A stretch of DNA of 64,000 nucleotides from NCBI GenBank assembly GCA_027624795.1, contig JAQBTX010000001.1, positions 27,170 to 91,169 on the forward strand, written 5' to 3'. Below, one piece after another: positions 38,261 to 42,665 of the stretch. Source of the stretch: a bacterium. Its GTDB lineage: Bacteria > Patescibacteriota > Microgenomatia > UBA1406 > GWC2-37-13. Numbering within the stretch: the first letter of the stretch is position 1; each line of letters opens with the position of its first letter. Position numbers and translations under genes: made by a program. The notes under the pieces were generated by a model. The model searched no databases. It was not told the DNA's origin and saw only the letters and a program-made list of their open reading frames with translations.

Positions 38261-38332
38261 AGCGTGTATCTATTTTAGCACTTTAGCCTCAGAATGCAAC
38301 ATTCTACTTGAGAATAATTCTCCATTTTCTAC

Positions 38333-38361
38333 TTGACAAATATACATTTTTTGTATATTAT
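38333..38361 (+). promoter_or_regulatory. Consensus sigma70-like promoter of the aaRS-like gene
   Basis: TTGACA (38333-38), exactly 17 nt, then TATTAT (38356-61). The -35 box is overlapped by the second copy of the direct repeat TTCTACTTGA (38302-11 and 38327-36). Confidence 0.6.
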
Positions 38362-38431
38362 GCTTTGAATATTTAAAATATTAATAGTTTTTAAGTAAAA
38401 ATATTCATTTTTTAATAAATTTACTCGTCAA

Positions 38432-39544
38432 ATGAAGAAAATTAACTTATCAATAAAAAATACTGTAGTTCCTATCGACTTTAACACTCATTTTAAAAAT
38501 CTCGCACATATTGCTGATTCTTTAAATCATGGCGCATCAAAACATTATAAGAAAATGGGGCTCACCTATGTCGATGTTCCAGAAATTGTTGGGATTACTG
38601 GTGCGTGTGAAAACGTAGACACCCTATTTGTCATACAAAACAGAAATGGCATTCCCCTTTTTTTTGCACAAACTGGGCAACTTTCACTTGAACAGATACT
38701 ACAGACACTACCTGGTGCATATACCGTCATTCATTCTGGTCGCGATGAGGAATATGAGGACGCGCGACATTTACGACAATTTAGACTCACTGAAGAGGAA
38801 TTCGATTGCACTCTCGTAAATATGAATCGAGACAATTATGATGAGGAGAAGATGTTTCAAGCACTGCTCAACCATATACAATGTGCAGTACAGGCAATGA
38901 TCTATGAAGTGATCCAAGACCATCAATCCTTATTGGAAAATACGTATCATAGAGATATAGAAGTCCTACACTACACCTCCTCACATGATTTTCAACAAAT
39001 ATCGTATGGGGATGCAGTTGAACTCCTAAATGATAATGGATTTCCAAAAGTACAATTCGGTGATGATCTAAAATCTGAACATGAAGCATGTGTGATAGAA
39101 GTATTAAACAAAGGAGAAACGGAATTACCAGTGTTTATTACCAAGTATCCAAAAGATATTAAATTTTTTAATATGAAGGTTTCAGAAAAAGATCCACGAG
39201 TGGTTCTTTCTGCTGATCTTATTCTTCCCTATGCCGGAGAAGCCACCGGTTCTGCAGTACGTGAACATGATTTCAAAAAACTTGATGAACGACTCACAAA
39301 TTCTACTATGTTTAAACTCCATACTCAAAGAGGGGGAACCTATGATGATTTTAAATGGTATTTGGATATTATTAAAAGCAAAAAAACCAATCCTCATGCA
39401 GGATATGGCATAGGTAATGAACGGGTACTCCAATATATCTTTGGAGAAAAAGATATTAGAAACGTATCGTTATTTTCACTGTTAAACAATCAAACCGGAG
39501 ATTGGGATAAGTCGAAACAGGGAAATAACAAGTTTGTAAAATAA
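38432..39544 (+). CDS. Class IIb aminoacyl-tRNA-synthetase catalytic-core paralog (AsnRS/AspRS-like) lacking the anticodon-binding domain
   Basis: Motif 2 GRDEEYEDARHLRQFRLTEEEF. YPKDIKFFNM. GEATGSAVRE. Motif 3 PHAGYGIGNERVLQYIFGEKDIRNV. Only about 25 aa precede the motif-1 region, so there is no OB fold. Confidence 0.8.
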   Translation: MKKINLSIKNTVVPIDFNTHFKNLAHIADSLNHGASKHYKKMGLTYVDVPEIVGITGACENVDTLFVIQNRNGIPLFFAQTGQLSLEQILQTLPGAYTVIHSGRDEEYEDARHLRQFRLTEEEFDCTLVNMNRDNYDEEKMFQALLNHIQCAVQAMIYEVIQDHQSLLENTYHRDIEVLHYTSSHDFQQISYGDAVELLNDNGFPKVQFGDDLKSEHEACVIEVLNKGETELPVFITKYPKDIKFFNMKVSEKDPRVVLSADLILPYAGEATGSAVREHDFKKLDERLTNSTMFKLHTQRGGTYDDFKWYLDIIKSKKTNPHAGYGIGNERVLQYIFGEKDIRNVSLFSLLNNQTGDWDKSKQGNNKFVK

Positions 39545-39552
39545 ATATACAG

Positions 39553-39581
39553 TTGCATAAATGTATAATTATGATTATAAT
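39553..39581 (+). promoter_or_regulatory. Consensus sigma70-like promoter of a micro-transcript
   Basis: TTGCAT (39553-58), exactly 17 nt, then TATAAT (39576-81). Confidence 0.6.
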
Positions 39582-39587
39582 ACCAAC

Positions 39588-39714
39588 AATGATCACATTA
39601 CTTACACTCACCAGCATCGTTTCACGACGAACCAACGGGGGAGTAAGTTTTGTGATATAACAATCACAGAAACAAGACAATCCCCTGCCCATAAAACGGC
39701 GGGGGATTTTTTTT
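39588..39714 (+). ncRNA. Roughly 125-nt promoter-to-terminator unit: sRNA, leaderless 23-codon micro-ORF (39589-39660) or attenuator leader
   Basis: ATG lies 7 nt after the -10 box. The ORF is MITLLTLTSIVSRRTNGGVSFVI. Hairpin at 39647-39673, followed by a strong intrinsic terminator. Confidence 0.45.
39680..39714 (+). terminator. Rho-independent terminator
   Basis: ATCCCCTGCC-cataaaac-GGCGGGGGAT forms a 10-bp stem with one G-U pair, followed by a run of 7 T. Confidence 0.8.
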
Positions 39715-39735
39715 GGTTAAAAATTACTAGCACTT

Positions 39736-40254
39736 ATGATAGATATACTAATATCAAGTACGCATAAATCAAAAACGCCAGCACTGGATGCAAACGATAT
39801 TTGGGTGGTTTTAATGGATGATCCGACATTTGCATCAACGTACGAAAGAGAAACTCAAGCTCATAAACCATTTGTAGATGCTCTTCCTGAGCTTTTCAAG
39901 GAAGAGATGAATAAATATGTTGGCGCTGCTCTCCTAATGCAGCTCAGATCCAAATATCTATCCTATTGTCTTCAGAATGATTATGTTGGAACAGTACTTG
40001 GAGGAAGATTTAAGGGTGCCTTTCAAAAAGAATTGGAAAAAGCAACAATACTCTATAGTAGTTCTGCCAGATTTGTTGATGAATCAATAAAAAAACAAAA
40101 TAAAACCGATATCGAATGGTTGATGCACTTTTGTTTAAGTCCAGCATCTCTCACGATGCATTCAGAAGGAATACTTACAGTAAGACAGTTACTTTTGACC
40201 CAACCAATGGCAATCATAAGTACGCCACCTCAAACAGTTTTATCCACGTATTAA
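39736..40254 (+). CDS. Hypothetical protein (172 aa), no recognisable family
   Basis: Uninterrupted ORF ending 5 nt before the GNAT start. No motifs recognised by eye and the start is uncertain. Confidence 0.5.
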   Translation: MIDILISSTHKSKTPALDANDIWVVLMDDPTFASTYERETQAHKPFVDALPELFKEEMNKYVGAALLMQLRSKYLSYCLQNDYVGTVLGGRFKGAFQKELEKATILYSSSARFVDESIKKQNKTDIEWLMHFCLSPASLTMHSEGILTVRQLLLTQPMAIISTPPQTVLSTY

Positions 40255-40259
40255 GTACT

Positions 40260-40865
40260 ATGGAAAATTTATCAACATATATGGTCGAGACTGAACTAAA
40301 TTCACTTATTCTTCTTAAAAACGATGCCTTTACTGCTCGTGTAGCAACAGAGGGCGATACTTTGTGGACAAATACAATAAGTAATTGGATTAGTAATGCG
40401 GGACCCCAGAAAATGATACCTAAAGATATCAGTACTATTGCTAGATACTTTAGAGACCAAGACTCCGTACTTGTTTTTAGTAATGAAGGCCTACTCGTAG
40501 GACATATTGCGTTTACGTATAGATATGGTGTGGGAAATGAACGTGTAGAAATAGGTTCTTTGTGTATCAATCCGGAATTTGGAGGTAAAGGGATAGCGAC
40601 TATGGCAGTTCAAGGCATTATACGCTACGCTGCTTTAACATTTGATGTAGATACAAATATATTTGCTATGTGCAACCAAGAAAGCCTACATATATTTGTT
40701 AATAAAGTAGGAGGGATAATTGTCCCTTGTGAAAAAACAGATAATGAAGTGTACAATCATTGTGAGCTCTGCCCACGTGCAGCAGGTGCGTCGACATCCG
40801 CACCTCCTTGTCGCCATACCCATGTAGACCTTACACGAGTAGTTGCATCGCTTCGAGAGGTATAA
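40260..40865 (+). CDS. GNAT-family N-acetyltransferase with C-terminal Cys/His-rich tail
   Basis: Acetyl-CoA motif A IGSLCINPEFGGKGIATMAVQ. Tail CEKTDNEVYNHCELCPRAAGASTSAPPCRHTH. ATG 40260 chosen; the track start at 40116 overlaps the upstream ORF. Confidence 0.78.
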   Translation: MENLSTYMVETELNSLILLKNDAFTARVATEGDTLWTNTISNWISNAGPQKMIPKDISTIARYFRDQDSVLVFSNEGLLVGHIAFTYRYGVGNERVEIGSLCINPEFGGKGIATMAVQGIIRYAALTFDVDTNIFAMCNQESLHIFVNKVGGIIVPCEKTDNEVYNHCELCPRAAGASTSAPPCRHTHVDLTRVVASLREV

Positions 40866-40892: not shown

Positions 40893-42665
40893 ATGCTGAA
40901 AGACAAAATTCACATCATCATAGCTCAAGCTTTAGAGGAACTCAACCTTCCTTCAGACAAGCTTGCCATTTCTCCGCCCAACAATGAAAATTTTGGAGAT
41001 TATGCCACGAACATAGCCCTTCAACTGGCAAAGAGTGAAAAGAAAAACCCCATGGTACTGGCACAACATATAGTTGATGCAATCAAGACTGGTGATGTGA
41101 TAGAAAAAGCAGAGGTTATGAATCCAGGATTTATAAATATTCATATTGGTAAAAATAAACTGATCGAAAATCTCTCTCAAATTGCTATCAATAAGATTGA
41201 AATTCCTCAAGTAAATAGCGGTAAGAAAATTATTGTAGAATATTCAAATCCCAATATTGCAAAACCATTTACAGTTGGACATCTACGCTCAACTATTATC
41301 GGTGATACTATCGCAAACCTTTTTGAGTCAACTGGGGCGACTATTTACCGCGATAATCATCTTGGCGACTGGGGCACACAGTTTGGGAAATTAATTTATG
41401 CTATAAAAGAGTGGGGAAATGAAGAAGAGATAAAAGGTGCTGAAAACCCCGTTAAGATACTGGTTGAATTATATGTCAAATTTCATACTGAAGCAGAAAA
41501 AAATCCTGATTTAGAAATAGAAGGAAGAAAATGGTTTAAAAAACTGGAGGATGGAGATGAAGAAGTTCGACGGTTATGGAAACAATCGATTGAATGGTCT
41601 TGGACTGAATTCGACAGATTATACAAACAACTTGGTATAAAAACAGAGGATTTTGAAAATAATGGCCGCGGATATGGAGAATCGTATTTTGAAGATAAAA
41701 TGGATCCGATCATAAAAGAGTTAAAAGATAAAAAAATATTACAAGAAAGCAAAGGGGCATGGCTTGTATTTTTCCCCGATGAAAAATTTCCTCCCATGAT
41801 GCTCGTGAAACAAGATGGCGCTACATTGTATGCGACGAGAGATCTCGCGACAGATAAATTCAGATTAAATAAATATGGAAAAGACGTGATCATTATTAAT
41901 GAAGTTGGAGCTGAACAATCATTATATTTTCAACAACTTTATGAAGTAGAAAAAATGGCCGGATGGGTAACGGATGGTCAGCGTATTCATATCAAGCATG
42001 GCATGTTTAGATTTAAAGACTCCAAAATGTCTACAAGGAAAGGGAATACCATATGGCTTGAAGATGTATTGGAAGAAGCCATAAAGAGAGCGCATGAAAT
42101 TGCAATGGAAGTTGGAATAAAAGAACAAGGTGATATATCAATGATTAAGAGTAGTCATATTATTGGGGGAGAATCTAAACGTGAAGAAGTTACATATAAA
42201 ATCGCAATCGGAGCTCTTAAATGGAATGACTTAAAGCGGAGCGCTCATATGGATATTGTTTTTGATTGGGATGAGCTTCTTAATATGCAAGGAAACTCCG
42301 GACCTTATGTTCAATATACCTATGTCCGTTGTAAGTCTGTGTTGGGTAAAGCAGATAATCCTGTCATTCCCGACCCCGATCGGGAATCCAGAGAAATAAA
42401 TGAAGAGGAGTTAAGCTTGATAAGATCACTTTCTAAATATCCCGAAACTATACTTGAATCTACACAGAATTTTGCTCCAAATTACTTGTGTTTATATTTA
42501 TATGACTTGTCACAAAAATATAATCTGTTTTATCAAAAACACAAGATTCTAAAAGCGGAAGACGATGAGATTATACAAATGAGACTTACCATAACGAAAG
42601 CTGTAGCAAATGTGCTCAGTCACGGTCTTACCCTACTGGGAATAGAGACGGTTGAAAAGATGTAA
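40893..42665 (+). CDS. argS: Arginyl-tRNA synthetase
   Basis: 590 aa. NPNIAKPFTVGHLRS (HIGH-like). Class I core. C-terminal DALR anticodon-binding domain (LSLIRSLSKYPE...APNYLCLYLYDL). Confidence 0.93.
   Translation: MLKDKIHIIIAQALEELNLPSDKLAISPPNNENFGDYATNIALQLAKSEKKNPMVLAQHIVDAIKTGDVIEKAEVMNPGFINIHIGKNKLIENLSQIAINKIEIPQVNSGKKIIVEYSNPNIAKPFTVGHLRSTIIGDTIANLFESTGATIYRDNHLGDWGTQFGKLIYAIKEWGNEEEIKGAENPVKILVELYVKFHTEAEKNPDLEIEGRKWFKKLEDGDEEVRRLWKQSIEWSWTEFDRLYKQLGIKTEDFENNGRGYGESYFEDKMDPIIKELKDKKILQESKGAWLVFFPDEKFPPMMLVKQDGATLYATRDLATDKFRLNKYGKDVIIINEVGAEQSLYFQQLYEVEKMAGWVTDGQRIHIKHGMFRFKDSKMSTRKGNTIWLEDVLEEAIKRAHEIAMEVGIKEQGDISMIKSSHIIGGESKREEVTYKIAIGALKWNDLKRSAHMDIVFDWDELLNMQGNSGPYVQYTYVRCKSVLGKADNPVIPDPDRESREINEEELSLIRSLSKYPETILESTQNFAPNYLCLYLYDLSQKYNLFYQKHKILKAEDDEIIQMRLTITKAVANVLSHGLTLLGIETVEKM
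42362..42389 (+). repeat. Hairpin-element copy D (perfect 8-bp stem), in frame in argS
   Basis: TGTCATTCCCGAccccgaTCGGGAATCC: stem ATTCCCGA/TCGGGAAT. Translated as VIPDPDRES in the variable linker before the DALR domain. Confidence 0.75.

Follow-up and report, generated by a model that had tools for sequence, protein, structure and literature searches.

Does an aminoacyl-tRNA synthetase (aaRS) core that has no anticodon-binding domain form one functional module with the genes that separate it from argS, and what reaction might it carry out? The question is raised by a stretch of 64,000 nt (the window) from a Patescibacterial genome (assembly GCA_027624795.1, contig JAQBTX010000001.1, forward strand 27,170-91,169), in which the gene for such a core, here called the ligase, is followed by a short promoter-to-terminator unit, a gene for a 172-aa protein, a gene for a GNAT N-acetyltransferase, and argS. 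The original prediction, made from the letters of the window, had proposed that the ligase is functionally coupled to the acetyltransferase. Comparison with related loci divides the region into three separate units, namely the ligase, a leader RNA and an accessory gene pair, and not one module, a reading that is held with about even confidence. The sequence features listed in that prediction are all present where it placed them. The ligase is almost certainly a non-tRNA adenylate-forming ligase that does not belong to a described system; the earlier statement that the gene combination was not a described one is thus supported for the ligase. The annotation of the ligase and the GNAT as one system is unsupported, and the two should therefore not be annotated together.

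The loci compared are genome or metagenome contigs of relatives and carry L numbers. The search for ligase homologues returned at least 855 proteins, and a scan of GTDB species genomes for the ligase gave 80 more loci, with open reading frames (ORFs) called, clustered and labelled by hidden Markov models (HMMs). Genomic contexts are counted over those 83 loci whose ligase gene could be located within the set of called ORFs, and the family profile and the residue conservation are derived from 45 ligase family members (the window copy and 44 others). A second set, obtained by a search from the PRK06886 amidohydrolase introduced below, comprises 75 labelled loci. The two features at the head of the region are as follows.

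38333..38361, + strand: promoter-like site (TTGACA-17-TATTAT) upstream of the gene resembling asparaginyl-tRNA synthetase (AsnRS), from a consensus scan
38432..39544, + strand: AsnRS-derived catalytic-core paralogue (the ligase), 370 aa, without anticodon-binding and C-terminal MGS domains, from Pfam, NCBIfam, PDB and Foldseek

The class IIb core that had been predicted here is present, with the motif 2 and motif 3 strings that had been quoted for it, and it matches Pfam tRNA-synt_2 with an E value of 9e-30. The best NCBIfam model is asnS (TIGR00457) at 176.1 bits, below its cutoff of 342.6, and a second asnS-type score of 169.4 bits is below its cutoff of 414. The alignment to TIGR00457 begins at model position 135 of 455, and therefore the N-terminal OB anticodon-binding domain is absent, as had been claimed. 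The stop-to-stop frame opens at 38399, with an in-frame stop just upstream of the ATG, and thus an upstream extension is not possible. The consensus promoter that had been assigned to the gene is found at 11 of 12 consensus positions, which is a pattern match only; promoter-like sites in the region are not enriched over shuffled sequences (10 found, 12.2 expected).

A mundane alternative had also been offered, in which the gene would encode an archaeal-type asparagine synthetase beside unrelated genes. The archaeal AsnRS-related asparagine synthetase (AS-AR, e.g. PDB 3P8T) and AsnA are likewise class II cores without an anticodon domain, and would presumably share with the ligase the logic of adenylation followed by nitrogen attack, without tRNA. 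Their scores, however, exclude the ligase. The NCBIfam AsnA models (PRK06462) give it 34-68 bits against cutoffs of 309-389, and the 45-member profile gives 130 bits with AsnRS, about 52 with aspartyl-tRNA synthetase (AspRS) and only 31.5 with AS-AR. A PDB sequence search ranks AsnRS first (1x54, E 6e-25), as does a Foldseek search (1x54, E 1.6e-23, TM 0.72) with the AlphaFold2 (AF2) model of the ligase (pLDDT 85), and AsnA and AS-AR structures, such as 3P8T and 1NNH, are not among the top 50 Foldseek matches. Because the profile, PDB and Foldseek comparisons all side with AsnRS, the ligase is regarded as an AsnRS-derived core and not as a member of the AS-AR/AsnA group, that is, as an independent derivation from AsnRS. 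Moreover, most ligase members have a CarB-type domain and lie in pyr operons, whereas AS-AR and AsnA are without either. Of the mundane alternative, the part that stands is that the neighbours are largely unrelated to the ligase; the archaeal-type identity falls with the scores.

Residues E60, Q80, Q83, R104, E106, E121, E123, R277 and R331 are invariant over the 45 members; among them are R104 and E106 of motif 2, R331 of motif 3 and E60 of the flipping loop. In human AsnRS, the counterparts of E60, R104 and E106 are E279, R322 and E324, through which that enzyme contacts the asparagine, phosphate and adenylate of Asn-AMP (PMC10831071). The side-chain pocket is AsnRS-like, with Leu86 at the position of AspRS Lys198 and R277 retained, and the dN/dS of the window ligase against that of L087 is about 0.06. 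Canonical AsnRS (asnS) is thus the best match in both sequence and structure, and motifs 1-3 and the Asn-AMP contacts are conserved in the ligase. The ligase differs from it, however, in having no OB domain, in falling below the 342.6 cutoff, in its metabolic context, and in the replacement of the class IIb 'EF' glutamate of motif 2 by a Gln (Q116) that is invariant in the family. Very probably, the ligase is an active adenylate-forming enzyme for an aspartate- or asparagine-like substrate.

The window ligase is 64-78% identical to the 44 other family members, shares all the invariant columns with them, and scores 692 bits with the family HMM. The NCBI name of the family is 'amino acid--tRNA ligase-related protein'. 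The taxon-named records among the homologues are all Patescibacteria, and the family is apparently restricted to a subset of this phylum. Most homologues have an identity of 65-72% and a length of about 496 aa, and carry at the C-terminus an MGS-like domain, which is lacking in 39 of the 83 loci. The window ligase ends exactly at the start of the MGS domain of its relatives, and no degraded MGS domain was found by tblastn anywhere in the window, including downstream of the ligase.

The MGS domain of the ligase aligns to about residues 937-1049 of carbamoyl-phosphate synthetase (CPSase) in NCBIfam, and a PDB profile search with the MGS-bearing family matches 2yvq and 5dot. By these comparisons it is the C-terminal allosteric domain type of CarB. 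The domain known from CarB and CPS1 is therefore shared by most ligase members, where an AsnRS core takes the place of the carbamoyl-phosphate synthetase; in their operons ArgG bears such a domain too, but it is absent in the window copy of the ligase. Within one operon, the domain on the ligase and that on ArgG share 42-46% identity; compared with the C-terminus of a Patescibacterial CarB, the two show 29-37% identity, and that of the ligase by itself 31-37%. In L048 (3756-7145), a single ORF of 1129 aa consists of ligase, MGS, DHO_dh and phosphoribosyltransferase (PRTase) parts. It is multi-enzyme like the CAD and UMP synthase fusions, but its upstream unit is an adenylating one of aaRS type, not CPSase, aspartate transcarbamoylase (ATCase) or dihydroorotase (DHOase). 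Other arrangements are a PyrD-PRTase fusion of 639 aa in L009 (11472-13391), an MGS domain as its own 126-aa ORF in L043 (10001-11536), and an 841-aa form of the ligase in L078 (8597-11122), whose 470-aa N-terminal extension matches no family.

Which genes, then, accompany the ligase among its relatives? In five metagenomic contigs pyrD, pyrE and pyrF are directly downstream of it, in some of them together with pyrG, phosphoribosyl pyrophosphate (PRPP) synthase or an AspA-like lyase, and the start and stop codons of the ligase and pyrD often overlap or abut. Of the 77 loci with at least one gene downstream of the ligase, 28 have PyrD in the position immediately after it, and PyrF and PyrE are present in 26 and 28, respectively, of the 83 loci. 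Where the ligase has the MGS domain, 28 of 40 loci have pyr genes downstream, and where it does not, 3 of 34 do (Fisher test, p = 7e-8, uncorrected for phylogeny). A functional coupling of the ligase, the short transcript, the 172-aa gene and the GNAT gene is thus not supported, as the recurrent partners of the family are pyrimidine genes, not acetyltransferases. Within pyr operons, AspA-like, fumarase-like and malic-enzyme genes are also seen (L005 9620-10945; L016 12610-13920; L078 11112-13638, - strand). They would fit aspartate supply, or a class 1 dihydroorotate dehydrogenase that uses fumarate as its electron acceptor; a PyrK-like partner was not seen in these operons.

In 7-9 loci two more genes precede the ligase, which gives the recurrent order ArgG-MGS, PRK06886 amidohydrolase, ligase-MGS, PyrD. 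The ArgG part is bona fide (506-518 bits, cutoff 334), and the amidohydrolase, which is related to cytosine deaminase, meets the NCBIfam equivalog 'PRK06886 hypothetical protein' (465 bits vs 340). Seen from the amidohydrolase side, ArgG-MGS is present in 41 of the 75 loci, PyrD in 36, PyrE in 42 and PyrF in 26, but the ligase in only 9. The dominant operon has the order ArgG-MGS, amidohydrolase, PyrD, PyrE, PyrF, and the ligase, if present, is located between the amidohydrolase and PyrD. By the operon surveys from both sides, therefore, pyrDEF has three alternative 'heads': ligase-MGS alone, ArgG-MGS plus amidohydrolase, or both. A literature search yielded no description of the ligase family, of the ArgG-MGS fusion, or of PRK06886 in pyrimidine synthesis.

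The full ArgG-MGS/amidohydrolase/PyrDEF order occurs in at least 20 loci (among L090-L169, e.g. L101 8001-8972 with its flanks, and L160-L169; also in L009, L025 and L027), and carAB, pyrB and pyrC are usually missing from their vicinity. The catalytic Glu that cytosine deaminase carries in its HxxE motif is replaced in the amidohydrolase by an invariant Gln. The operon may represent a route from citrulline and aspartate to dihydroorotate without carbamoyl phosphate. Metagenome contigs from the human gut (L119-L131 and L152, up to 557 kb long) again link the amidohydrolase to pyrimidine genes, because in these a gene resembling orotate phosphoribosyltransferase adjoins the amidohydrolase directly downstream, without ArgG-MGS or the ligase.

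The position of the window copy in the family was assessed with a neighbour-joining tree of ligase cores, in which it groups with L007, L001 and L087. All four are without the MGS domain and without pyr linkage. The clades around theirs in the tree, L005 as the sister among them, bear the MGS domain and are linked to pyr genes, and the four are thus nested within such clades and have lost both the MGS domain and the pyr neighbours. The clade shares upstream synteny, with genes for PIG-L, UDP-glucose dehydrogenase, an epimerase and GT2/GtrA, and a PEGA-SH3 protein on the opposite strand.

Candidate Phyla Radiation (CPR) bacteria are commonly portrayed as incapable of de novo nucleotide synthesis, yet many of them have pyrD-pyrE-pyrF without an obvious source of dihydroorotate. 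The ligase, and the pair of ArgG-MGS and PRK06886 amidohydrolase, are testable candidates for the missing steps upstream of pyrDEF. It is tentatively proposed, with somewhat less than even confidence, that the ligase is an AsnA-like, amide-forming non-tRNA enzyme that supplies the substrate of PyrD. The enzyme would adenylate the carboxyl group of an aspartate- or asparagine-type substrate, as AsnA and AS-AR do, and a nitrogen nucleophile would then receive the activated carboxyl, so that an amide (C-N) bond arises with no tRNA involved. The ancestral ligase would have carried the CarB-type allosteric domain as the first gene of a pyrD-pyrE-pyrF operon; because of these two traits, it would most likely deliver dihydroorotate, or the immediate precursor of it, to dihydroorotate dehydrogenase. 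This might be accomplished either by ATP-driven ring closure of N-carbamoyl-aspartate, or from asparagine and CO2 via an N-carboxy adenylate. The ligase of the window clade would then be a derived form, from which the regulatory domain and the pyr neighbours were lost. If the proposal is true, a new function joins those of the few aaRS paralogues listed so far (AsnA, AS-AR, HisZ, EpmA), and a pyrimidine route without carbamoyl phosphate might be revealed.

Several observations weigh against the proposal. An apparently functional canonical DHOase with all its metal ligands is encoded directly upstream of the ligase in L078 and L024, and in L078 carA, carB and a true pyrB (326 bits vs 237) are present as well. 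Because these loci keep the canonical genes beside it, the ligase does not simply replace PyrC or CarAB/PyrB; replacement of DHOase in particular, weakened by the two adjoining DHOases, is kept as a sub-variant only. The residues by which AsnRS and AspRS bind the free alpha-amino group are all retained, which favours free Asp or Asn over an N-substituted aspartate. About half of the family, the window copy included, is not beside pyr genes, the 64-kb window contains no pyr, ArgG-MGS or PRK06886 gene, and the contingency test between the MGS domain and pyr genes ignores phylogeny. Much of this would equally suit a plain ammonia-dependent asparagine synthetase, a serious rival that is considered less likely. 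It would represent a third, independent conversion of an AsnRS into an AsnA-type enzyme, in which the MGS domain is a branch-point regulator of aspartate use and the adjacency to pyr genes reflects shared aspartate metabolism. AsnA and AS-AR are its reported precedents (Roy et al. 2003; Blaise et al. 2011). It is also consistent with the AsnRS-like pocket (Leu86, R277), with the retained alpha-amino-binding residues, with the persistence of the family without pyr neighbours, with its coexistence with canonical PyrC, PyrB and CarAB, and with the recurrence of aspartate-using enzymes (AspA-like, ArgG) in ligase operons. For an asparagine synthetase, however, the translational coupling to pyrD and the L048 fusion to PyrD and PRTase would be odd; the CarB-type allosteric domain common to the ligase and the ArgG of the same operon also argues against it, and the ligase reaches no AsnA model cutoff and is far from AS-AR.

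The L048 fusion may also be taken to suggest that the ligase is a non-catalytic regulatory subunit of a pyrimidine enzyme, for which there is a precedent in HisZ, an aaRS paralogue that regulates a phosphoribosyltransferase. This reading, or that of a true AsnRS that recognizes tRNA without an anticodon domain, is very improbable. The ATP- and adenylate-binding residues are all invariant at 65-78% overall identity, unlike in HisZ, the OB domain is absent with no recurrent small OB-fold neighbour to stand in, and the family is limited to a subset of Patescibacteria, in metabolic operons. In a broader claim, the ligase would be the regulated entry enzyme of an undescribed Patescibacterial route to dihydroorotate, and the leader RNA described below would be a new riboswitch or attenuator class for the argS operon. 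The ligase would act alone, or downstream of the fusion of ArgG with the CarB-type domain and the cytosine-deaminase-like amidohydrolase; by way of argininosuccinate, these two would transfer the carbamoyl group from citrulline to aspartate, so that CPSase, ATCase and DHOase are bypassed. The two parts of this claim are unlikely to hold jointly. A path from citrulline via argininosuccinate and a cyclic anhydride to dihydroorotate, with the ligase as the cyclase, is speculation only, and most ArgG-MGS/amidohydrolase operons are without the ligase, which speaks against it.

Returning to AsnA-like amide formation as the proposed role of the ligase, the question remains whether the genes downstream of it in the window have any part in that role. 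The features of this part are as follows.

39553..39581, + strand: promoter of the leader RNA, with -35 box TTGCAT (39553-39558), 17-nt spacer and -10 box TATAAT (39576-39581), read from the sequence
39588..39716, + strand: structured leader RNA of about 130 nt, from its fold and its conservation in L007 and L087
39736..40254, + strand: 172-aa all-alpha protein, starting 20 nt past the terminator U tract, from its ORF and AF2 model
40260..40865, + strand: GNAT N-acetyltransferase, 201 aa, RimJ/RimL-like, with a C-terminal Cys4/His motif, from Pfam
40893..42665, + strand: argS (arginyl-tRNA synthetase, ArgRS), last gene of the putative leader-controlled unit, from the ORF list

The downstream order varies within the clade. 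In the window, the ligase is followed by the RNA, the 172-aa gene, the GNAT gene and argS; in L007, by the RNA, argH (324 bits vs 279.5) and argS; in L001, by a palindromic repeat and argS directly; and in L087, whose ligase is 78% identical to that of the window, by a repeat, the RNA, a gene for a 167-aa homologue of the 172-aa protein, and a GNAT-Peptidase_M15 fusion. The argS orthologue of L001 has the domains Arg_tRNA_synt_N, tRNA-synt_1d and DALR_1. A tblastn search found no remnant of argH in the 172-aa ORF or the intergenic DNA of the window.

The independent promoter-to-terminator unit that had been predicted after the ligase is real. Its promoter begins 9 nt past the ligase stop codon, the -10 box is a perfect consensus, and L007 and L087 have kept both this box and its upstream flank. 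To these two loci the RNA unit shows 85-89% identity, and its 5' portion of about 60 nt is essentially invariant across all three genomes. The coding DNA of the window and L087, by comparison, shares 56-73% identity, with dS at 1.0-2.8 (saturated). The RNA is therefore conserved far beyond chance, since it remains 85-89% identical while the synonymous sites are saturated.

The minimum free energy (MFE) fold of the full-length leader (-45.4 kcal/mol, z-score -6.4) consists of a hairpin, P1 (39592-39656), and then a terminator with an 11-bp stem (39679-39708) and a U tract. For the nascent transcript, which ends short of the 3' arm of the terminator, the MFE fold is instead an antiterminator (39636-39644 with 39677-39687), in which the 3' half of P1 is paired with the 5' arm of the terminator. 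The antiterminator helix encloses a hairpin (39648-39656/39663-39671) formed by UGUGAU and the downstream repeat AUCACA. In all three sequences 94% of the antiterminator pairs are kept, and the terminator stem of L087 contains a compensatory GC-to-AU change. P1 has a symmetric 7x7 internal loop, which is opened on both strands by ACCA and is invariant in the three genomes. ACCA is the sequence of the tRNA 3' end, and it is pure speculation that the loop is a protein- or RNA-binding site, for example one that mimics the tRNA acceptor for ArgRS.

The predicted folds suggest that the leader RNA is, with better than even probability, a transcription attenuator for the operon that ends in argS, because it has its own promoter, mutually exclusive folds, and a constant position about 20 nt before the first gene of the operon. 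In all three RNA loci the next start codon is 20-21 nt past the U tract, too short a distance to hold a further promoter; the ORF that begins there is argH in L007, and in the window and L087 it is the 172-aa gene. No + strand terminator between the GNAT gene and argS was found in the scan. The promoter, the exclusive folds, the start codon about 20 nt past the U tract and the association with an aaRS operon are shared with T-boxes, riboswitches and attenuators. The leader differs from T-boxes and riboswitches, however, in having no Rfam match and no T-box or specifier features seen, and in being found in three genomes only.

Rfam 15 gives no family at the gathering score in the whole window, and the best sub-threshold matches in the region at E <= 1 are ncr1175 (24 bits vs 60) and Thr_leader (22 vs 55); ARAGORN finds no tRNA gene in the window. 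A reading of the leader as SRP (signal recognition particle) RNA or a T-box was rejected, for there is no Rfam support and no UGGN bulge or specifier was found. A covariance model recovered only the three known copies of the RNA from 89 sources (1.28 Mb) of related loci, a match in L019 having proved to be an ordinary terminator. An exact-pattern scan for the RNA core gave no match in a metagenome collection that misses short contigs such as L087. To our knowledge, almost no RNA regulators are known in the phylum Patescibacteria, and the leader is a candidate for a new cis-regulator of an aaRS operon.

The attenuator reading is weakened by the fact that there are only three sequences, that no double compensatory change is present in P1 or the antiterminator among them, and that no ligand is known. 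It is possible, though doubtful, that the RNA is instead a stand-alone small RNA (sRNA), or just the 3' untranslated region (UTR) of the ligase transcript with its terminator. The perfect -10 box together with a strong terminator at the end, and the terminated form being the full-length MFE fold, are consistent with an sRNA; the terminator is the sole one downstream of the ligase, and the unusually high sequence conservation, even in stems, is like that of protein-binding sRNAs. These alternatives would, however, leave the downstream genes of all three loci with no promoter room in the 20-21 nt after the U tract. Moreover, the nascent transcript has the antiterminator as its MFE fold, each of the three sequences is able to adopt it, and the downstream gene varies while the operon always ends in argS.

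The 172-aa protein was said to have no recognizable motif, and indeed it has no match in Pfam, NCBIfam, PADLOC or PDB sequences. Its AF2 model (pLDDT 89.6) is all-alpha and matches no fold in a Foldseek search of PDB and BFVD (E > 0.7, TM < 0.32). Word-index homologue searches with this protein and with the GNAT retrieved the query itself only. An exhaustive HMMER search yielded 37 homologues of the 172-aa protein (about 35 of them remote, of about 165 aa), and the 167-aa homologue in L087 is 51% identical and in the same position. The dN/dS against L087 is about 0.4; with this value and the 37 homologues, the ORF is regarded as a real gene. In L088 (1-5504) and L089, remote homologues have as neighbours a large serine recombinase, a MerR/HTH_17 gene and DUF4256, without the GNAT or the ligase, which hints that the 172-aa family travels on mobile elements.

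The GNAT matches Acetyltransf_1 (E 7e-9) and Acetyltransf_3 (28.3 bits vs a cutoff of 25.4), and its best PDB match is 3fbu, with 1nsl also close. A longer ORF of 249 aa (40116-40865) is a frame artefact that starts within the 172-aa gene; the true start is the ATG at 40260, according to the NCBI annotation and the L087 homologue. The Cys/His tail that had been noted is present, and its four Cys and the His are conserved in the sole homologue, that of L087 (42% identity), which is fused to a VanX-type Peptidase_M15 domain. The gene ends at 40865 and the ATG of argS is at 40893, which leaves the gap of 27 nt given earlier. In its families and relatives the GNAT is like those of the RimL/RimJ/MccE type, but it differs from them in the Cys4/His tail and in the L087 fusion to the D-Ala-D-Ala dipeptidase domain. 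In TacT/AtaT/KacT systems, a small RHH/DUF1778 antitoxin is located upstream; the window GNAT is instead preceded by the 172-aa all-alpha protein.

Is the cassette, then, a partner of the ligase? The original model, in which the GNAT acetylates the aminoacyl adenylate or product of the ligase in a MccE/RimL- or TacT-like manner, with the 172-aa protein as a third component, is quite improbable. It is true that the order ligase, RNA, 172-aa gene, GNAT gene recurs in two genomes (the window and L087), and that the GNAT is of the RimJ/RimL (Acetyltransf_3) type. But a terminator and an independent promoter split the ligase from the cassette, and the 172-aa gene and the GNAT gene are absent from L001 and L007 of the same clade, the latter of which has the same RNA before argH, and from the other 86 ligase loci and 80 amidohydrolase loci (166 in total). 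The occurrence of the 172-aa family beside a serine recombinase also argues against the coupling, and there is neither a PADLOC match nor a toxin-antitoxin signature. Only position ties the cassette to the ligase. By this distribution, the 172-aa gene and the gene of the Zn-ribbon-tailed GNAT are evidently a lineage-restricted accessory pair between the leader and argS.

Just after the ligase gene, small palindromic repeats resembling miniature inverted-repeat transposable elements (MITEs) are present in L001 (6600-6790) and L087 (1306-1450). The repeats differ from each other (e.g. GTCATTGCGAG...CTCGCAATGAC), and the spacer after the ligase looks like a hotspot of insertion and rearrangement.

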